Source: Minisyncoccota bacterium
GTDB taxonomy: Bacteria; Patescibacteriota; Minisyncoccia; Phycocordibacterales; JAACPR01
Assembly: GCA_043728995.1 (NCBI GenBank)
Contig: JAYTLZ010000016.1
Coordinates: 1 to 36,873 of the forward strand
Reading direction: 5' to 3'
DNA length: 36,873 bases
Each line of letters begins with the position of its first letter. The first letter of the stretch is position 1. The translations under genes and the position numbers were made by a program. Shown one piece after another: positions 4,419 to 29,955 of this stretch. Below the pieces are notes generated by a model that saw only the letters and a program-made list of their open reading frames with translations, was not told the DNA's origin and searched no databases.

Positions 4419-5762
4419 TTACTTGCCTTTGCTCAGAACTAGTGTCTTAAGTGTCTTGAGTGCAATGATGGCATCCAGGATGATCGAACGGTTCTTTACG
4501 TAAAAGAGGTCGTACGAAAGCTTCTCGCTGGTTGCATCCACGTCGAGACCGTGATGCGGATGATTGTCGTGATAAATCTGCGCCCATCCGGAGAGTCCGG
4601 GCTTGATCAGGTGCCGGACGTTGTAATACGGAATCTGATCCATATAGGACTTCACCGCAAGGTCAAACTCGGGTCGCGGACCGATCAGCGAGATGTCGCC
4701 TTTGAGCACATTCCAGAGCTGTGGCAGCTCGTCGATTCGAGTCTTTCGCAGGAAGGCGCCCACGCGCGTGACCACATTCTTCTTCCCCTCCTCTTTCCAT
4801 CGTCCGCCGTCGTTGGCATACGTCATCGTCCTGAACTTCAGCATCTTGATGATTTTGTTGTTCTTGCCGACGCGTTCCTGTATGGAAAAGAGTCCCTTAC
4901 CGTCGTCGAGCTTGAGTGCGACATACACGAAGGGGTAAAAAACTAGTGATGCCAGCACAAGGAAAAACGAGACGATCATGTCCATAGCCCGCTTGAAGAA
5001 GTCATACAAGGCATGAGGCTTCGACTTCACATTCTCCAGGAACCAGCCATGCTTGACGAGCTGAAGAGGAACTTTATTGTAGACAGCCTCATATACGTCA
5101 GACATCTCGACGAACTGCACGCCCGAGAACATCAGGTCATAGAAAACAGGCAGAATGGGCAGGATCGCGTCATCCTTCGTATCGACAATGACAAAGTCTA
5201 TATCGTCTACGTAAATATTCTGGATCAGCTTGTCCACGTCGACGCCGTCACAGTCCAAATCAAGGAAATACTTTACCTCAAATCCTGACATGCCTCCCGC
5301 AAGATCCTGGCACAGCTGCCTCGCCTCCTCGCCACGACCCACCAGTGAGACTGACCGGTTCCTGCGGCCTGCAAGCAAGGCGCCAGCATACCTCCACAGG
5401 CACAGAAGCACCACCGATATCCCGAGATAGATGAAGAGGTTGGTCTTTGGGGCAATCTGCGTTACCGGAGAAAAGTAGAAAAAAAGCACCGCAATGATCG
5501 AGTTCACTCCCTGGATCTTGAGAACCGACACCAGAATGTCCTGCTTGCTGAAGGATATCCTCTTTTCATACTGGCCGGACACGAAGAATACGAATATCCA
5601 GATCGCAAAAAGGAGCGAGAACGGCACAAGGTGGGTTGCCCAGATCTCATCAGTCGGGAGCCCCAGATACCTGATGCACAACACCAGCCAAAGAGAGGCG
5701 TACAGAACGAGGACATCTCCCAAAACATGCAGAACGGATTCTTTTTTGGATAGCAGATTCAT
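4419..5762 (-). CDS. polyprenyl-phosphate sugar phosphotransferase (bacterial sugar transferase, WbaP/EpsB-like)
   Basis: Multi-TM N-terminus plus a C-terminal bacterial sugar transferase motif ([24 protein letters not shown]). The ATG at 5762 is preferred; an in-frame GTG at 5795 is possible. Confidence 0.85.
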
Positions 5763-9494: not shown

Positions 9495-9980
9495 ATGAAA
9501 TTTCAAAAGGGATTTACGCTCATCGAGCTCCTTGTCGTCGTGGCGATTATTAGTTTGTTGTCGAGTGTGGTGTTGGCGTCACTCAGGGATGCGAGGGACA
9601 GGGCGAAGCTGACCGCTTTTCAACAAGACGTAGAGCAATTTATACTGGCAGCTGAATTATACAAGACTGATCACGGAGGAGAGCTTCCTGCCGTTGTATA
9701 TTTTGGAAGTTCTGTTGACAACCCTGATCCGGGTGCAGATTTTACAAACAATTTCGGGCAGTATATTTCGAAGTTCCCCGTACCACCGTTTCCTTTGCCT
9801 AATGATGAATCACTGTATTACGTTGGAGAAACTTTACCCGCCTTGTGTGGCGGTGTTGAGACATACCATTATCTCGTTTTGAATTATAATTATAGCGTTA
9901 GTACAGCCTATGATCCTTTAGAAGAGTGGGGTTGGACTTTTTCTAACAATGGACTCGGTCTGCCGTGCATACCACTTTAA
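9495..9980 (+). CDS. type IV pilin / pseudopilin-like protein, paralog of 6971..7471
   Basis: MKFQKG|FTLIELLVVVAIISLLSSVVLASLRDARDRAKLTAF. The first ~45 aa are almost identical to the other pilin. The ATG at 9495 gives a typical short leader; ATG 9465 is an alternative. Confidence 0.85.
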   Translation: MKFQKGFTLIELLVVVAIISLLSSVVLASLRDARDRAKLTAFQQDVEQFILAAELYKTDHGGELPAVVYFGSSVDNPDPGADFTNNFGQYISKFPVPPFPLPNDESLYYVGETLPALCGGVETYHYLVLNYNYSVSTAYDPLEEWGWTFSNNGLGLPCIPL

Positions 9981-10072: not shown

Positions 10073-10189
10073 TCTGTCTTGGCGACTACCTACTCTCGCC
10101 CTGAAGGACTACCATCGGCGCTGACAGGCTTAACTTCCGAGTTCGGAATGAGATCGGGTGTACCCCCGTCGCCAAATCACCAAGACAGA
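10073..10189 (-). rRNA. rrf: 5S rRNA
   Basis: The reverse complement reads UCUGUCUUGG...CCGAACUCGGAAGUUAAGC...GCGCCGAUGGUAGU...GAGAGUAGG...CCAAGACAGA. Helix I closes, and a flanking ATCCAA/TTGGAT pair extends the stem. Confidence 0.93.
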
Positions 10190-10264: not shown

Positions 10265-10566
<302 letters not shown>

Positions 10567-10871
10567 CATCTACTCAACTTCATGGTTGCGTTACAGCCAT
10601 GAATGATTTCACACATTACTGTGTGGATTGGACTATATCTTCATCACGCGTTCATCTGTGATGGTTAACGTGTAGTCTCTACGGGTCACTGGAATTACTT
10701 CGCAATGTTCCCTCGGTATTGCCCTCTATTGCTAGATAGGGTTCCACCGATATAGTTAACTTGTCTACAACTGCTTGTTATAGCCGCCGTGTCTTTGTTT
10801 GTCTCGCCTCTTTGTCACGGGTTCAGACTGTTCAAAATCCAAATGCATGCTTGCGCATCTTTCGATTCTCA
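10567..10871 (-). mobile_element. ORF-less ~305-nt insertion in 23S at the L2593-type site, group I-intron-like
   Basis: It interrupts the conserved GAxCGU|CGUGAGACAG sequence. The 5' exon ends in U and the insert ends in G (..GAGUAGAUG|CGUGAG). A 13-nt insert segment (10819-10831) is complementary in 12/13 positions to the 5' exon end (10872-10884). Confidence 0.7.
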
Positions 10872-11535
10872 ACGGTCTGAACCCAGCTCGCGTACCTTTT
10901 TAATTGGCGAACAGCCAAACCCTTGGGACCTTCTCCAGCCCCAGGATAAGATGAGCCGACATCGAGGTGCCGAACACTGCCGTCGCTATGGACGCTTAGG
11001 CAGTACCAGCCTGTTATCCCCAGAGTAACTTTTATCCGATAATCTCGAGCACCATCTAATGGTAACTCTCGGTTCACTATGCTCCACTTTCGTGTCTGCT
11101 TGACTTGTACGTCTTACAGTCAGGCTCCCTTTTGCCATTACACTATCGGCACGGTTTCCATTCGCGCCTAGGGAACCTTTGTAGGCCCCTCCGTTACTTT
11201 TTTGGAGGGTAGCGCCCCACTAAAACTGCCCACCAGATACTGTCCCAATAGGGTTTTTCCCTACTGGTTAGATTATATCCCCTCAAAGGATAGTATTTCA
11301 CTGACGACTCCATGTTCCCCGGAAAGAACACTTCAAAGTCTCCTACCTATGCTGCGCAGTGAGGACATATAATCAATACCAAGATGCAGTAAAGCTTCTG
11401 GGGTCTTTTCGTCTATTTGCGGGTAGCCGGCATCTTCACCGGCACTGTATTTTCACCGAGCAAGTCTCCGAGACAGTTCCCCCATCGTTACGCCATTCGT
11501 GCAGGTCTGAATTTACCAGACAAGGAATTTCGCTA

Positions 11536-12399
<864 letters not shown>

Positions 12400-13206
12400 C
12401 AGGGCTTATACAGCGCCAGCCCATAAAATAAATCATGGACCGACCATATTTAACCTTCTGGCATTGGTCAGGCGTCACCCTCTATACATCATCTTACGAT
12501 TTCGCAGAGAGCTGTGTTTTTGATAAACAGTCGCGGGGGAGTCTTTCGCTGCGGCCCATATTGCTATGGGCAAGCCTTATTCCGAAGGTACGGCTGCTTT
12601 TTTGCCGAGTTCCTTGGAGACCTCTCACTCGTTCGCCTTGGTCTGCTCGACCTGACTACCTGTGTCGGTTTGCGGTACGGGTTCGATATAACTAACCTTA
12701 GAAGTTTTTCTTGGACATGTGCTCCCGAACATTTGGATACCCGAAGGCACCATTTTCGTTACGCTTGGAATTGGGTTGCCCCGACTGCCGGATTTGCCTA
12801 ACAGTCTTCCTCACGGCTCGAACGTAAATCCAATAATACGCGTTCAGTACAACTTGCCGTCACTCCATCGAATTATATCGAAGTTACGGAATATTAACCG
12901 TATGTCCATCGGATGCGGATTTCTCCATTTCCTTAGGCCCGACTAACCCTTCGCTGATTACCATTGCAAAGGAAACCTTAGTCTTTCGGCGTGCATGGAT
13001 TTCACATGCATTGTGGTTACTTGTGCCAACATTCTTACTTCGCAACGCTCCACTATGGGTCACCCCTTTAGCTTCGACGCGGTTACGAATACTCTCCTAC
13101 CGCTAGAATCTCCCTGAGGATCATCTAGCCCTAAACTTCGGTATCATGCTTGAGCCCCGATTATTTGCGGTGCAGGATCTCTGAATGAGTGAGCTGTTAC
13201 GCTTTC

Positions 13207-13238
<32 letters not shown>

Positions 13239-13811
13239 TCATTGTCAGAGAAATCCCACCTCCTTAAGTGCACTTAGCATGAATTTTGGGACCTTAATTG
13301 TAGATCTGGGCTGTTTCCCTTTTGACCAATGGAGCTTAGCCCCCACAGTCTAACTGCCAGACTATTAACTTGCGGTATTCGGAGTTTGATAGGTCTTATG
13401 AGATTGCTCCCTATTAAGACCTTCCAGTGCTCTACCCCCACAAGGAACATCTGACGCTAACCCTAAAGCTATTTCGGAGAGAACCAGCTATTACCAGATT
13501 CGATTAGCTTTTCACTCCTTACCACAGGTCATCCGAAGGAGTCGCACGACCAACCGGTTCGGGCCTCCTCCTGCCTTTCGGCAGGATTCACCCTGCCCAT
13601 GGTAAGCTCATCTGGCTTCGGGTCCAATATATACTACGAACGCACTATTCATACTCGGTTTCCCTACGGCTTCACCCCTTCAGGGCTTAACCATGCAATA
13701 TATATTGACTCGTTGGCTCATTCTTCAATAGGCACGCTGTCGAGGATCAAGTCCTCTTCAACTCCTTGTAAACATATGGTTTCAGGTCTATTTCACCGTC
13801 CTTCCGGACTA

Positions 13812-13851
<40 letters not shown>

Positions 13852-14541
13852 TTCTAGAGTATTTAGCCTTACCAGTTAGTTCTGGCAGATTCACTCAGGC
13901 TATTCATGTCCTGAGCTACTCAAGAACAATAAAAATGGTTGATTCGCTTTCGCGTACGGGACTATTACCCTTTAGAGTCGTTCTTTCCAGAACGTTCCAC
14001 TAGCTAATCATTTTGTAACCATTATCCAGTGCTGTATCTCTGTCTTCACTTTCATGAAAACAGAGAAGAGCACTGGAAAATTTATCGTCTTACAACCCCG
14101 CCCGTATAAATACGCACGGTTTGGGCTCGTTCCTTTTCGCTCGCCGCTACTTAGGAAATACTTCGCTTACGCGACTTTTTTTCTTTTCCTCCTGGTACTG
14201 AGATGTTTCACTTCCCAGGGTTCGCTCCCGCTCTCTTTACAAGATTGGGTAACTGAGGTTTGCTCAGTTGGGTTGCCCCATTCGGACACTTCCGGATCAA
14301 AGGTTATTAGGCACCTCCCCGAAACTTATCGCAGCCATATCGCGTCCTTCATCGCCTCTAGAAGCCAAGGCATCCACCATATGCTCTTAAATTTCCTATT
14401 AGGAAATCTAAAAACCACTTTTTAACTTTTTTTGCAGACGTATCACCGTCTGCACTCGTTGAAAATATTTTTCAATTGACTACTTTGACTCTTACTTATT
14501 TCTCAATATTTAGTTGTCAATGAACCCACGACATCTCGTCT

Positions 14542-14670: not shown

Positions 14671-14690
14671 CACCTTACGGCCCTTTATTG

Positions 14691-14803
14691 GTAAGGCCAG
14701 GAATATAGTCCGATGCTGCGCGGGACAGCGGTCGGGATTACACCTCTTTCCCAGGGAAGTGACGCGTCCCTGGGCGCGCATTCGGACATATTCCTGGCCT
14801 TAC
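14691..14803. ncRNA. 113-nt highly structured element: 16-bp perfect arms plus nested stems. Candidate ncRNA or insulator; strand undetermined
   Basis: Outer arms are GTAAGGCCAGGAATAT (14691-14706) and ATATTCCTGGCCTTAC (14788-14803). Inner pairings are GTCCGA/TCGGAC, GCGCG/CGCGC and a CCCAGGGA-N9-TCCCTGGG hairpin. Confidence 0.45.
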
Positions 14804-14808
14804 AAAAC

Positions 14809-18398: not shown

Positions 18399-18444
18399 GC
18401 CAATACTATACGAATGACTGGTCATGGAACTATTAAGAAATACT

Positions 18445-18478
18445 AAAGACCGCCCGGCAGATCTGCCGGGCGGTCTTT
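18445..18478. terminator. Hairpin terminator after the small secreted protein gene
   Basis: AAAGACCGCCCGGCAG-at-CTGCCGGGCGGTCTTT, a 16-bp palindromic stem. Confidence 0.7.
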
Positions 18479-18489
18479 ATATTCGTCGA

Positions 18490-20979: not shown

Positions 20980-21502
20980 CAAATTGTCGGTACAACTTAA
21001 ATCGTTTTTTTGTTTTTGGTTGCGGACGTACCCCGCAACCCTTGCCTACCGAGACAAGTGGCTTGTATCTCTACTCGCCTATATATTCACCAATTCAGGT
21101 TCTCCGGAAGAGAGCTCCTGAAATCAGCTTCAAGATGGTATGTCTGAAGTTCAATCTTTAACTAATCGTTACTGAATGAGTCATGCAGATTATCCTAAGA
21201 TCACTTGGCAAACTGTTTTGAGAACTTTGCATGTCTAACACTATATATGCGACATCTGCACAAGGCACATGTCTCTATATAGTGAACTGCTATTAAGTTT
21301 TCAAAGTTCAGTCGTGCGGTCGTATTCGATCTCGGGATCCCCTCATTATATATGTCAGTTGCCTGACCTCTATACAAAGGTTGTGTGGAAAACTCATAGA
21401 GTTTGGCCACAAGACATATAATATGAGGTTTTGGCAAAAAAGTCAATGAAACAAAGGGTCAAATCAAATAGGTCTGGCCGCGCAGGCCTGACCAATTTGA
21501 GA

Positions 21503-25310: not shown

Positions 25311-26348
25311 ATGCAAAAGAAAAAAGCAAAAGCGAAAGCAACAAAGACAATTAGCTCCGAGAGCACCATTGAGGAGACACTGAGAGAGATCAAGACAAAG
25401 TTCGGCGAGGAGGCGATCATGAAGCTTGGCGACAGGCCGAAGACGAGCGTTGACGCTATCCCCTCTGGATCAATCGGTCTGGATGAGGCACTTGGCGTTG
25501 GAGGATACCCACGAGGACGAATCATCGAGGTATTCGGACCTGAGTCATCGGGTAAGACGACACTAACCCTGCACGCGATTGCAGAGGCACAGAAGAAGGG
25601 CGGCGTGTGCGCGTTCATCGACGCGGAGCATGCACTTGATCCTGAGTACGCCAAGAGGCTTGGCGTAAAGCTGGACGAGCTTCTCATCTCGCAGCCTGAC
25701 ACCGGAGAGCAGGCGCTTGAGATCGTTGAGAGTTTGGTTCGTAGCGGTAAGATCGACATCGTAGTCATCGACTCCGTTGCGGCACTTACTCCAAAGGACG
25801 AGATCGAAGGAGACATGGGTGCTCACCACGTGGGTAAGCAGGCACGACTGATGTCGCAGGCTCTGCGAAAGCTGACCGCGATTACCGCCAAGAGCAAGAC
25901 CATCGTGATCTTCATCAACCAGATCCGAATGCAGATCGGCGTGATGTTCGGTAACCCTGAGACGACACCAGGAGGAAAGGCGCTGAAGTTCTATACCTCA
26001 GTACGACTCGATATCCGACGAATCGCCCAGATCAAGAAGGGTGAGGAAATCATGGGAGGACGAGTTCGCGTGAAGGTCGTAAAGAACAAAGTTGCTGCCC
26101 CATTCCGGGCTACCGAGTTCGATCTGATGTACAACGAGGGCATCTCACTTGAGGGTGAGCTGATCGCGCTTGGAGAAAAGTACGACATCATCCAGAAGTC
26201 AGGAGCGTCGTACGCGTTCGGCGAGTCCAAGCTGGGACGAGGATATGACGCCACTCGGCAGTTCCTGAAGGAGAATCCGAAGATTACAAAGGAAATCCTT
26301 ACGCTCATCAAGAAGAAGTTCAAGGACGAGGCTGACGCTGCTGCGTAG
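25311..26348 (+). CDS. recA: recombinase RecA
   Basis: Walker [27 protein letters not shown] and [22 protein letters not shown] motifs. Confidence 0.97.
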
Positions 26349-26361
26349 TCTGTAGCTTCCA

Positions 26362-26470
26362 CAAGAACACCAATAGAATAAAAAGGCACGCCGTATTTTT
26401 CTGGGGAAAAATCGGCTGGTGCTCGGGCCGTCGCCCTCCGCAACGCCTTTTTATTCTATTGGTGTTCTTG
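26362..26470 (+). repeat. Long-arm hairpin element, copy 1 (26-bp perfect arms, 57-nt core)
   Basis: Arms CAAGAACACCAATAGAATAAAAAGGC (26362-26387) and GCCTTTTTATTCTATTGGTGTTCTTG (26445-26470). The core plus 3 nt of each arm (26385-26447) recurs reverse-complemented at 29805-29867. Confidence 0.85.
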
Positions 26471-26542
26471 CTTTAGCGGCAGCACAACTCACCAGATACG
26501 CGGGGTTCCATTTTATGGATATTTTGATAGTATGTGGGAACT

Positions 26543-27136
26543 ATGTCTATATTGAATTACAATGAAATCAAGGAGCGAAAGTACATCGTACTGGACGGAG
26601 ATCCATACGAGGTGCTGGAATCTCACGTATTTAGAAAGCAGCAGCGAAAGCCCGTTAACCAGAGCAAGTTGCGAAACTTACTGAACGGATCCGTCCGACA
26701 GGAGACGTTCCATGCCAACGACACGGCTGTAGAGGCAGATATTAACAAGACCAAGTACGTCTTTACATTCATGAAGGCAAACCGACAGACGGGTGTGGAC
26801 GAGTACTGGTTCCACGACAAGGCCAACCGGTCTAACCGGTCTATGGTATTGCGGTCTGTGATCGAGGACTCAGCCAAGTACCTGAAAGAAGGTGCCGAGG
26901 TAGATGCGATGATCTTTAACGACGTGCTGATCGGAATCACCCTCCCAATCAAGATGCAGTTCAAGGTGACCGAGGCTGCACCCGCAGTTAAGGGAAACAC
27001 CGCCAACGGAGCAAGCAAGATCGTGACGATCGAGACGGGAGCGAAGATTACGACGCCGATCTTTATCGTCGAGGGCGACGAGATCATGGTGAACACGGTT
27101 GAGAACAGCTACGTCGAGAAGGCCAAGAGCAACTAG
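26543..27136 (+). CDS. efp: elongation factor P
   Basis: EF-P fold pattern (YIVLDGDPYEVLES...; C-terminal OB domains with VETGAKITTPIFI). The ATG at 26543 is preferred over the track GTG at 26534. Confidence 0.85.
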   Translation: MSILNYNEIKERKYIVLDGDPYEVLESHVFRKQQRKPVNQSKLRNLLNGSVRQETFHANDTAVEADINKTKYVFTFMKANRQTGVDEYWFHDKANRSNRSMVLRSVIEDSAKYLKEGAEVDAMIFNDVLIGITLPIKMQFKVTEAAPAVKGNTANGASKIVTIETGAKITTPIFIVEGDEIMVNTVENSYVEKAKSN

Positions 27137-27579: not shown

Positions 27580-28059
27580 TTAAAACCCTATGCCTCTCAA
27601 AAACACCTCAGGTCTAGCGACAAGCTTAACACCCAAGGCATTACACGTATCAGGTATTTTATATCTAGTATCACCCTGTTTCATTGGAAATTCTCTAGTA
27701 AATATTCCGTAGCCGTTATTCTTTGCCTGGGCAATTATTAACGGATCACCGCTCGAATTGAAACTGATGGGATCAACCATGGGATATGTTATGTTAATGG
27801 TGAGTGCGTCCAACTTATCCTTAGACGTAAGAGGAGTGACAAGAGAGGCATTTTTTTGTTTTTTACACCAATCCTTTAGTTCCCTTGGGTGGGTTATCTC
27901 ATCAAACACCACCTCACTTAGTATCCATTTTCCATCCTGAAGCGCCTTCTCAAGTTTATCCCAAAACGGCTTACTTATGGATAGACCTATTGGATTCCAA
28001 AGATGAAAACCGATTAGAGTGTTTGAATCCATTATGTAAATCAGTGCCGGAGTTGTCAT
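27580..28059 (-). CDS. DUF4411-family PIN-like protein (putative nuclease/toxin partner of the ImmA/IrrE gene)
   Basis: The N-terminal YIMDSNTLI and C-terminal YKIPDTCNALGV patterns resemble DUF4411. The start overlaps the upstream gene stop by 4 nt (ATGA). AT-rich. Confidence 0.65.
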   Translation of the reverse strand: MTTPALIYIMDSNTLIGFHLWNPIGLSISKPFWDKLEKALQDGKWILSEVVFDEITHPRELKDWCKKQKNASLVTPLTSKDKLDALTINITYPMVDPISFNSSGDPLIIAQAKNNGYGIFTREFPMKQGDTRYKIPDTCNALGVKLVARPEVFLRGIGF

Positions 28060-29183
28060 ACTTTTTCAACAGAAAACTTAAGGATATTCGAAGCCTCGGT
28101 ATACCCGATTTCATTATTTAAATATGCACCTGAAACAAGCCTATTCAAAAGACCACCGTTAGAATCACGCATATTGTTGTCGTGTGATCCACCTTTTCTC
28201 ACCTCAAGTTTCTTAAGCTTAAGATTCTCTTTCGTCTCATTAACGGCTCTTTTTTCAAACTCGGCGGAATCTACATATCTGATTCTTCCAAGTTCCTTGA
28301 GCCTGTAGAAAGTAGCAAGAACGCTAGTCTTATAAATTTCTGAAATTGCAACAATGTCATCGTAGGATGAAATGTTTTTCTGCAAATCAGCGCTTGGGAG
28401 CAATAATTCCGCAGCTACTCTGTTACAAAAAACTTCTTCAGGAGCGAGACGTCCTTTTGGGTCCCTGAAGTCAGGGTTATTTGAAATCGCATCACTTCTT
28501 CTAAAAAAATGAGCGAGTTCGTGAATAAAAGAAAATATCTGCGCAGAACGCGCATCCTTTCTGTTTATTATGATAAACGGTGCGTAATCATTGGATATAA
28601 ACATTCCTCGCATGTCATCAACTTCTATATTGTGACTCGATATTGTCTTGCCAACGAATATGCCATGCCGCTCGGCAAGTGATATCAAATATTCTAGTAC
28701 TCTTTTTTTTGCATCCGCCCTGTTCTCATTCTTAATGTAGCCCAAGTCAATGTTCAGACTTTTAGCAATATGAGCAGCCAATTTCTCAGGAGAATTTATA
28801 TTTCTTCCACTTCCCTGCAGTTTAACTTTTTCAAATCCTTCCTGCTTAAGCCTTTCCTCAACCCAGTGCTGCCTTCTAATTACAAGATTCACGAGCTTGT
28901 TAACGCCAACGCTGTCATCGATGTTGTGTCCAACTCTATAATCTGGAATGACCTTGTGTTGAGGTATCTCTTGTTCTGAAAAAAATAGAAGGAATGGTAC
29001 CTGATAAAGTGCGGCAATGTTCTCAAGCTGGTTCCATGTAGGCACCGTTTTTCCATCTTCCCATTGGCTAACAACGTCCACATCTTTGGACGTAATTTTC
29101 TTTGAGACATACGAAGTAGAAAGTCCAGAATTTAGTCTCGCATTTTTCAGGTTAGACCTGTTGAGAAGGTTGGAGTAGTCCAT
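28056..29183 (-). CDS. XRE-type HTH fused to ImmA/IrrE-family (COG2856) zinc metallopeptidase
   Basis: N-terminal HTH (LKNARLNSGLSTSYVSKKI...VSQWEDGKTVPTWNQLENIAALYQVP). HEXXH motif in FSFIHELAHFF. A TATAAT lies ~20 nt upstream of the ATG. Confidence 0.8.
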   Translation of the reverse strand: MDYSNLLNRSNLKNARLNSGLSTSYVSKKITSKDVDVVSQWEDGKTVPTWNQLENIAALYQVPFLLFFSEQEIPQHKVIPDYRVGHNIDDSVGVNKLVNLVIRRQHWVEERLKQEGFEKVKLQGSGRNINSPEKLAAHIAKSLNIDLGYIKNENRADAKKRVLEYLISLAERHGIFVGKTISSHNIEVDDMRGMFISNDYAPFIIINRKDARSAQIFSFIHELAHFFRRSDAISNNPDFRDPKGRLAPEEVFCNRVAAELLLPSADLQKNISSYDDIVAISEIYKTSVLATFYRLKELGRIRYVDSAEFEKRAVNETKENLKLKKLEVRKGGSHDNNMRDSNGGLLNRLVSGAYLNNEIGYTEASNILKFSVEKV

Positions 29184-29763: not shown

Positions 29764-29781
29764 GGCTGAATTATATCAGAA

Positions 29782-29890
29782 CCGCAGGAAATATTTGCAG
29801 GGAGGGCGTTGCGGAGGGCGACGGCGCGAGCACCAGCCGATTTTTCCCCAGAAAAATACGGCGTGCCCTTGCTGCAAATATTTCCTGTGG
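29782..29890 (-). repeat. Long-arm hairpin element, copy 2 (same core as copy 1, unrelated arms)
   Basis: Arms CCGCAGGAAATATTTGCAGGGAGGGC (29782-29807) and GCCCTTGCTGCAAATATTTCCTGTGG (29865-29890) pair at 22 Watson-Crick positions plus one G.U of 26. Positions 29805-29867 match the reverse complement of 26385-26447 at 62/63 positions. Confidence 0.85.
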
Positions 29891-29910
29891 CTCTGAAGTA
29901 ATAACATATA

Positions 29911-29949
29911 GCAAAAGCCGCGAGACAGAATATGTCTCGCGGCTTTTGC
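29911..29949 (-). terminator. Intrinsic terminator of the rpsF-ssb-rpsR operon
   Basis: GCAAAAGCCGCGAGACA-gaata-TGTCTCGCGGCTTTTGC, a 17-bp stem just downstream of the rpsR stop. Confidence 0.85.
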
Positions 29950-29955
29950 CTTGTG

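Follow-up and report, generated by a model that had tools for sequence, protein, structure and literature searches.

An inverted-repeat element between the recA and efp genes of a Minisyncoccota genome (contig JAYTLZ010000016.1, of which the whole 36,873-nt stretch analysed, positions 1 to 36,873, is referred to here as the window) was found to be a previously uncatalogued, structure-conserved intergenic repeat in a subset of candidate phyla radiation bacteria. Its members form a family with a common nested-hairpin structure and strong covariation, occur in multiple copies and in multiple gene contexts, turn over between related genomes and have next to no G·U pairs in their helices. The element is best read as comparable in kind to the REP/BIME, ERIC and Correia repeats, and as specific to a Paceibacteria-type lineage of Patescibacteria.

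The copy between recA and efp (copy 1) consists of the following parts, with the two genes on either side (scores in bits are from covariance models R1 and R2, described below):
26362-26387, plus strand: 5' arm, 26 nt, AT-rich and locus-specific, a perfect inverted repeat with 26445-26470
26388-26444, plus strand: conserved 57-nt core, apex of a three-way junction; 81 bits with model R2
26390-26416, plus strand: hairpin 1, with a GCCG/CGGC lower stem, bulged U, 7-bp A/U stem and UGGG loop
26420-26442, plus strand: predicted hairpin 2 and its base helix, UGC-UC-GGGC-CGUC-GCCC-UCC-GCA, preceded by a conserved CUCG motif
26445-26470, plus strand: 3' arm, perfect complement of 26362-26387
25311-26348, plus strand: recA, upstream of copy 1 (Pfam RecA, E = 7.7e-138)
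26543-27136, plus strand: efp, downstream of copy 1 (Pfam EFP domains; gene called at the same position in locus L001)

A first, sequence-only reading of the window had described a perfect 26-bp inverted repeat around a 57-nt core at this site; a repeat search returned identical coordinates (arms 100% complementary, 57 nt apart), and the core sequence quoted at that time was exact when the window was re-read. The 5' arm begins 13-14 nt past the recA stop at 26348, and no second site for it was found within the window at up to 3 mismatches. The 126-nt region of copy 1 was predicted to fold with -63.8 kcal/mol, compared to -32.1 +/- 3.4 kcal/mol for 200 dinucleotide shuffles (z = -9.3; 0/200 as good), into a three-way junction at which the long stem meets two hairpins, one A/U-rich, the other a small GC one. 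The loop had been thought to be itself structured, and the inner hairpin noted then (CCG-U-AUUUUUC-UGGG-GAAAAAUCGG) is indeed present in the prediction, as hairpin 1 of both the minimum free energy and the centroid fold, together with a second hairpin, GGGC-CGUC-GCCC.

The core had also been reported to recur 3.4 kb away in a different hairpin. This second copy was located on the minus strand, next to a rpsR terminator which is not part of it:
29910-29950, minus strand: canonical intrinsic rpsR terminator (context, outside the element), with an 18-bp stem including 10 GC pairs, a 5-nt loop and a T-rich tail
29865-29902, minus strand: 5' arm of copy 2, a 38-nt inverted repeat, 84% complementary, whose outer end overlaps the rpsR terminator tail
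29808-29864, minus strand: core of copy 2, 56/57 identical to copy 1; 71 bits with model R2
29770-29807, minus strand: 3' arm of copy 2, whose outer end holds an extended -10-like box, TGATATAAT

The two cores differ only by a G to C change at their position 39, through which hairpin 2 loses one pair. The stretch common to both copies is 66 nt (GGC, core and GCC), and outside it the arms are unrelated. Copy 2, with the TGATATAAT box at its outer end, stops 6 nt short of the ATG of a PAP2-like gene; the box is kept, as TGATATACT, in the element-free S18-PAP2 spacer of locus L003 (JAULZV010000044). The RecA relatives of the window are all Paceibacteria-type Patescibacteria, and L003 is the closest of them (91% RecA identity).

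The source genome appears to hold at least three copies of the element, the third being known from its left flank: in positions 1-379 of L171 (ENA ERZ27315170 k141_5630627) a sigma-70 (rpoD-like) gene ends and is followed by a left flank not seen before, which is joined to the core and right flank of copy 2. The junction would stem from a third copy in a chimeric assembly or, alternatively, from real recombination between copies or from an assembly jump through the 66-nt repeat. Other assemblies of the source organism break within the same 66 nt (the end of L002, which stops at core position 41; the start of L166, which begins 3 nt before the core; and both ends of L167), and a k=31 Logan contig of the organism spans core to core. 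An intact third copy was not retrieved with the 88-aa sigma-factor fragment of L171 as protein query, a search that gave nothing beyond fragments of at most 89% identity; in relatives, the surroundings of rpoD carry ordinary terminators and no element.

Covariance models were built from the two window copies (R1), from 12 sequences (R2) and from 20 sequences (R3), the search set being about 120 Patescibacteria recA loci. The three models converged on the same 20 copies in 14 loci, 18 of them in 13 loci besides the window, and nothing else scored below E = 0.1. A search of this kind had been proposed as a check in the sequence-only reading, and further copies were thus found both as the third flank in the same organism and as the 18 homologues. 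These were revealed by covariance model only: the core gave no match by blastn-short in related loci totalling 1.75 Mb, and exact-pattern scans with core fragments gave none in viral contigs, GTDB genomes or JGI metagenomes, collections from which the source organism is absent. Viral scans with family hairpin-2 patterns returned 7 chance 18-mer matches, none folding like the element, and otherwise 0 matches. The density in positive loci, all of them recA neighbourhoods, is about 1 copy per 10 kb (20 copies in 213 kb). A further long-arm hairpin with two inner hairpins was seen on the minus strand of L020 (5246-5335, in the EFP/S18 position; 18.6 bits); its first inner hairpin resembles hairpin 1 of the family, its second is a canonical A-tract/GC/T-tract terminator hairpin, and it may be a distant or hybrid relative.

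Each copy is a nested hairpin of 110-165 nt: a conserved three-way junction is closed by a near-perfect, mostly locus-specific outer stem about 18-45 bp long. The core unit is a double hairpin of 52-72 nt across the family, joined to the stem by (C)AC on the 5' side and UCC on the 3' side. In hairpin 1 a lower stem of 3-4 bp is followed by a bulged U, a mostly A/U stem of 7 bp and a U(G/A)CU loop, which is expanded in both L095 copies; the linker ends in a near-invariant CUCG; and hairpin 2 has a 4-5-bp GC stem and a CGUC or CGAC loop, of which the C-G-N-C pattern is near-invariant. Unpaired nucleotides are conserved at ACG, in the U(G/A)CU and CGUC loops, and at CUCG and UCC. A fixed arm length was considered and rejected, three copies having arms of exactly 26 bp within a family range of about 18 to 45 bp, and pairing of the 5' ACG with the CGU of loop 2 as a pseudoknot was unsupported in members with a CGAC loop.

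Compensatory change, as looked for in any structured RNA, was found. In the 20-sequence alignment 85.9% of cells pair, compared to 56% in shuffles, and double (compensatory) changes occur at 25/26 pairs; the covariation score was 0.71 versus 0.20 in shuffles and was reached by 0/500 of them, while structures shifted by 1-3 columns scored far lower. This alignment was fitted to the model, which favours the structure, and an independent MAFFT alignment (A2) agrees with it. Hairpin 1 pairs in 93% of cells, with double changes at 10/10 pairs, and the 4-bp stem of hairpin 2 in 96%, also with covariation.

An additional outer module, AAAAYTCTTTTTCGGCA ... TGCNCTCAACGARTTTT, was found in five members from four genomes, where it forms an outer helix and an asymmetric 7x7 internal loop whose polarity relative to the core is constant in all five:
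L100:11930-12095
L113:1590-1735
L095:3940-4105
L095:4535-4695
L005:5860-6000

The loci share a syntenic block, g269(-) | FtsK(+) 171-aa gene(+) RecA(+) EFP(+) | S18(-) SSB(-) S6(-) TatD(-), and the element was found in five different spacers of it, between tandem, convergent and divergent genes (plus and minus give the orientation of the element):
g269/FtsK, divergent genes: L104 plus, L103 plus, L110 plus (truncated), L112 minus, L100 minus
171-aa gene/RecA: L005 plus, L142 plus
RecA/EFP: window plus, L032 plus, L034 plus, L095 two copies plus, L113 minus
EFP/S18, convergent genes: window copy 2, L146, L113, L110, L103, L106 and the weak L020 relative, all sense to rpsR
S6/TatD: L100 plus, antisense

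The orientation of the element thus differs between genomes in the same spacer. Divergent genes flank five of the copies, and copy 2 runs from a canonical terminator to the -10 box of the next gene; these positions need not be transcribed. Turnover is evident from copies which are decayed or truncated (L110:5065 and L106), from L110, which is without the RecA/EFP copy present in L113, and from L003, which has no element in either of the two window spacers. Comparison of these spacers in relatives had been suggested beforehand, with absence of the element or a bare hairpin as possible outcomes: absence was found in L003, and a bare hairpin, into whose loop the core might have been inserted, was not found in the spacers compared. 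The S18-PAP2 spacer of L003 is empty and, at about 72% DNA identity to the window, too diverged to place insertion boundaries; the window spacers do not align with those of L003, and an origin of the arms from local flank was dropped as an explanation.

In the recA-efp spacer of L110 (9018-9547) a different insert of about 500 bp was observed, bounded by GC-rich inverted repeats (CCACCTCACCCC... / ...GGGGGTGAGGT) and with an apparent small open reading frame on the minus strand, read by eye. In the window itself, a DUF4411 (PIN-like) gene and an IrrE/ImmA M78-peptidase gene (27580-29183, minus strand; a 39% GC stretch) separate the two inverted core copies, inserted at a place where EFP and S18 face each other directly in relatives. 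This pair is probably an acquired toxin-antitoxin or defence cassette.

Cores and arms were found to have different histories. Core identity within a genome is 0.98 in the window, 0.97 in L113, 0.93 in L103, 0.69 in L100 and 0.57 in L095, compared to a mean of 0.47 between genomes. The identity of the window copies ends exactly at the junction (GGC|core|GCC), and their arms share only GGC/GCC; between c1 and c3 only the 8-mer AAGAACAC is shared (P about 0.06). The bases 5' of the core are GGC, GGC and GGT in the source genome and variable in other genomes. In the L113 paralogues the inner 15 bp or so of the arms are in common, and in the L103 paralogues (5035-5190 and 9665-9820 of a 588-kb contig) the arms are shared throughout, with compensatory changes in mid-arm; in both genomes the duplicated unit includes the arms. 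The outermost inverted termini of the L103 pair, of about 17 nt, are identical (GAGCATGTTTGAAAACC ... TTTCAAACATGCTC), are flanked by TA/TG and look like those of a MITE (a miniature transposable element with inverted-repeat ends). The orthologous EFP/S18 copies of L113 and L110 (about 82% DNA identity) have arms which differ by mirrored multi-base changes, and the arms therefore stay self-complementary while drifting. Near-identical cores beside unrelated arms point to a process at the level of DNA.

The explanation which we tentatively favour, and to which we would give close to an even chance, is that the element is a REP/ERIC-like dispersed palindromic repeat which is recognised in single-stranded form and often serves as the sole 3'-end hairpin of the gene upstream. 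Pairing in hairpins 1 and 2 comprised 245 Watson-Crick, 4 G·U and 5 A·C combinations among 254 cells, a count which comes from only 20 sequences, many of them related; in the outer arms there were 502 Watson-Crick, 18 G·U and 12 A·C. G·U is therefore nearly absent and no commoner than A·C, whereas in a structured RNA it should be well above A·C, and no strand asymmetry was seen. A tRNA control for the frequency of G·U was unusable, there being too few tRNAs in the loci. It is proposed that the core helices are strictly Watson-Crick on both strands because the core is recognised, by a putative host or element-encoded protein, when the DNA is single-stranded or extruded. The family would persist by duplication and turnover among intergenic spacers; cores might be homogenised within a genome by core-limited gene conversion or core-level mobility, and arms might be held self-complementary by arm-to-arm templated correction. 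No other terminator-like hairpin was found in 15/19 occupied spacers, and since the element is usually the only strong hairpin of its spacer, it probably doubles as the 3'-end hairpin of a neighbouring gene. Where transcribed it would act there (for recA, in the case of copy 1) in termination, in RNA stabilisation or as an RNase III site.

Among known repeats, ERIC/IRU of enterobacteria resemble the element in being imperfect palindromes of about 110-160 nt, intergenic only and in either orientation, with a copy number that varies between genomes and with conservation across fairly distant genomes. We know of no transposase gene associated with ERIC, and the same is true of the element. ERIC transcripts form long RNA hairpins able to affect the fate of mRNA. 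ERIC differs in being conserved over its whole length, whereas the element is conserved only at the apex and, in some members, at the outer termini, the rest of the stem being locus-specific; the two have no sequence similarity and occur in different host phyla. The REP/BIME repeats with RAYT (TnpA-REP) are likewise dispersed extragenic palindromes in which the hairpin rather than the duplex sequence is conserved, often at gene 3' ends and between convergent genes, with concerted evolution within a genome, and recognition as single-stranded DNA, as with REP, would explain covariation limited to Watson-Crick pairs. REP units, however, are 20-40 nt long with a conserved 5' GTAG and are not nested in long variable stems, unlike the 52-72-nt double hairpin within arms of 18-45 bp described here, and no GTAG-type motif was present in the alignments. 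Correia elements (CREE/NEMIS, Neisseria) and similar MITEs are alike in size (100-160 bp), in inverted ends of about 26 bp, in forming long hairpins in transcripts and in being intergenic in both orientations, and TA flanks occur at the L103 copies; in MITEs the terminal repeats are conserved and the interior is free, however, and the window copies show the reverse. The view of the sequence-only reading that the architecture is not of any described MITE, attC or REP type is supported, most defining features of these types being absent or ambiguous.

In keeping with the same reading, the element also matches no described RNA family. A scan of the whole window with Rfam 15 at gathering score returned only rRNAs and a group I intron; the element region gave 12-16-bit noise at E<=10 against thresholds of 45-160, and three other loci with five copies gave only sub-threshold hairpin noise, so that neither the window element nor these other members has a gathering-score match. 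This comparison covers hammerhead, twister, pistol, hatchet, Y RNA, SRP, 6S and STAXI. A hammerhead or other ribozyme was rejected in addition for want of a CUGANGA/GAAA core, a CsrA site because its ACGGAU motif is not conserved in the window copies, and guide-like arms because the arms have no second match in the window. TIGR-Tas arrays are reportedly tandem and were set aside, the element occurring as dispersed single units. No description of the element was found in the literature.

Two more distant systems have a comparable shape. Double-hairpin elements (DHE) are known from chytrid mitochondria. Repetitive hairpin elements have been described in sponge mitochondrial DNA (PMC2800124). Such mitochondrial elements are short, mobile-looking intergenic repeats with two adjacent, structure-conserved small hairpins; they differ in being organellar, in having unrelated sequence and in not being nested in perfect outer stems of 20-45 bp. 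The T- or Y-shaped terminal hairpins of parvoviruses, such as the inverted terminal repeat of adeno-associated virus (AAV ITR), are alike in architecture only, a long stem closing a three-way junction with two small palindromes inside it; they are the termini of linear single-stranded DNA genomes and serve rolling-hairpin replication, whereas the element is an internal chromosomal repeat, and no homology or shared mechanism is implied.

Besides the narrow base of the G·U count, several observations weigh against a DNA repeat of this kind. The 43-kb contig showed no gene for a transposase, a RAYT-like protein or an integrase; a target-site duplication could not be demonstrated, the window copies being without clear direct repeats; the unrelated arms of the window copies beside a 98% identical interior are unlike both MITE termini and whole-length ERIC; and any copy number for a whole genome is an extrapolation from recA neighbourhoods. 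Covariation that persists over order-level divergence, with loop and junction nucleotides conserved as well, is seen more typically in functional RNAs than in selfish repeats, and the same applies to the conserved asymmetric internal loop of the five-member subfamily. Orientation is also biased, with 7/7 copies sense to rpsR in the EFP/S18 spacer, about 8/10 sense in tandem-gene spacers and 3/3 following a gene in sense in the source organism, although these counts are phylogenetically non-independent.

These latter observations are what would be expected if the family were a dedicated structured RNA, either a cis-acting module of 3' untranslated and intergenic regions or a small RNA gene with several paralogues per genome, which we consider a real possibility, if a smaller one. 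The three-way junction might then bind a protein or signal processing, with the long stem as a generic closing helix, for example an RNase III substrate releasing or protecting the core. The strong covariation of both hairpins and the conserved unpaired nucleotides support an RNA, as do the constant polarity of the 7x7 loop in five members from four genomes, the sense bias (at the rpsR 3' end, in tandem spacers and in the source organism) and the L100 and L095 paralogues, which have diverged in sequence and kept the fold, as long-term structural selection predicts. Against an RNA, G·U is nearly absent and no commoner than A·C, and the five copies between divergent genes, like copy 2 between its terminator and promoter, need not be covered by any flanking transcript. 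There are two clearly antisense copies (L113:1623 and L100:11973, both within the AAAAYTCTTTTTCGGCA/TGCNCTCAACGARTTTT subfamily) and mixed orientations at one spacer, some genomes carry decayed copies and relatives differ by gains or losses, the sequence upstream of the element showed no conserved promoter, and the near-identical cores beside unrelated arms suggest events in DNA.

Identical cores against unrelated arms are otherwise unexplained, and this leaves room for core-level exchange or fold-back generation of arms. The element could accordingly represent a new class of nested element in which the double-hairpin core is an independent unit, an idea which we consider rather unlikely. Cores would then be exchanged and homogenised without their arms, through pairing of complementary tip loops from inverted copies or by a structure-specific enzyme, and fold-back (snap-back) synthesis on the local flank would restore the long perfect arms; this is conceivable because the folded junction sets the 3' end of the core beside its own 5' flank. 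Or the family could be an RNA class new to science, widespread in the candidate phyla radiation and with a protein partner.

It is improbable that the element is no more than an ornate variant of a bidirectional intrinsic terminator, its core being an inherited apex without a separate role. The length of the stem had been taken to set it apart from ordinary terminators, and this did not hold in relatives, whose ordinary terminators have perfect arms of 21-27 bp (19-27 bp in L016, L010, L011 and L004). Long perfect stems are normal for terminators of the lineage, and what sets the element apart is therefore its branched and conserved apex, together with arms that have no GC-rich inner stem; insertion into terminator loops was rejected as an origin because these terminators do have one. 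A terminator would agree with the element being the one strong hairpin of 15/19 occupied spacers and with the AAAAA...GGC / GCC...UUUUU that flank the junction in copy 1, L034 and L095, and use from both strands would explain strict Watson-Crick pairing. A terminator scan of 26250-26600, however, found no terminator-like site at copy 1, where AT-rich arms with no more than GGC at the junction and a loop of 57 nt stand in place of a GC-rich stem, a 3-8-nt loop and an immediate U-tract. Most copies are without a U-tract directly after a GC-rich stem, copy 2 and L095:3973 adjoin separate canonical terminators, and the five copies between divergent genes need none; conservation of core loops and junctions over large distances and homogenisation of cores within a genome are also left unexplained. 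That the element is not an ordinary terminator, as first proposed, was thus borne out by the scan of copy 1 and by the separate rpsR terminator beside copy 2; it may still act as a non-canonical one.

Still less is to be said for a substrate of a single-strand-specific recombinase or transposase (attC-like, or an IS200/IS605- or REP-type end pair), for which we see only a slight chance; the 57-nt core alone would then be the mobile or recombining unit, landing in or creating palindromic flanks. The identity boundary of the window copies exactly at GGC|core|GCC, the Watson-Crick-only pairing and the conserved bulged base of hairpin 1 would fit. A bulged base is likewise found in the imperfect palindromes to which IS608 TnpA binds. 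In L171 the core connects one copy's left flank with another's right flank, which recombination could produce; assembly through the 66-nt repeat explains this equally well. Integron attC sites are alike in size range, in functioning as folded single strands, in conserving structure over sequence and in an apex which may branch, but they are conserved at the base of the stem (R''/L'' and L'/R' boxes) and variable at the apex, the inverse of the element. The core ends, ACGCC... and ...CCGCAAC, misfit RYYYAAC/GTTRRRY and thus the R''/R' consensus, and the neighbours are recA, efp, rpsR and a PAP2-like gene, with neither an integrase nor a cassette array. The two hairpins, A/U-rich with 7+3 bp (hairpin 1) and GC with 4 bp (hairpin 2), do not resemble each other, unlike IS200/IS605 ends, no integrase or Y1 transposase was found nearby in the 43-kb contig, and the duplicated unit of L113 and L103 extends into the arms.

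Patescibacteria genomes are very small and their spacers short, and neutrality is therefore improbable for an element of 110-165 nt kept in many spacers of distant genomes. A repeat recognised as single-stranded DNA would point to an unknown structure-specific enzyme in Patescibacteria and to a route for the birth and survival of long perfect palindromes there; an RNA would represent a new structured class, present in multiple copies, in a phylum with almost no known regulatory RNAs. Should core exchange and fold-back be true, a mode of repeat propagation and palindrome birth undescribed for bacterial repeats would be at work in minimal genomes. In practice the element fragments metagenome assemblies of its host organisms and can create chimeric joins, and a model of it would aid finishing and annotation.

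The rRNA genes of the window are unlinked (1-1087, 10077-10184 and 10274-14403, all on the minus strand), with a partial 16S gene about 9 kb from a 23S-5S pair and with SecD/SecF, sugar transferase, FtsW and pilin-like genes between them; the 23S gene spans 4.1 kb and includes a group I intron match at 10609-10844. About 290 nt upstream of the 23S 5' end lies another long-arm hairpin (14688-14806); its arms are 19 nt (95% complementary), and its branched loop of 81 nt is unrelated in sequence. Model R1 gave it only 16.7 bits, and it may serve in processing of the rRNA leader or be a nested-hairpin element of another kind. A branched hairpin with imperfect arms of 33 nt was observed at 21341-21428, downstream of a 269-aa gene, and a perfect palindrome of 36 bp without a loop at 18444-18479. 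Long palindromes seem to be tolerated in the source genome.

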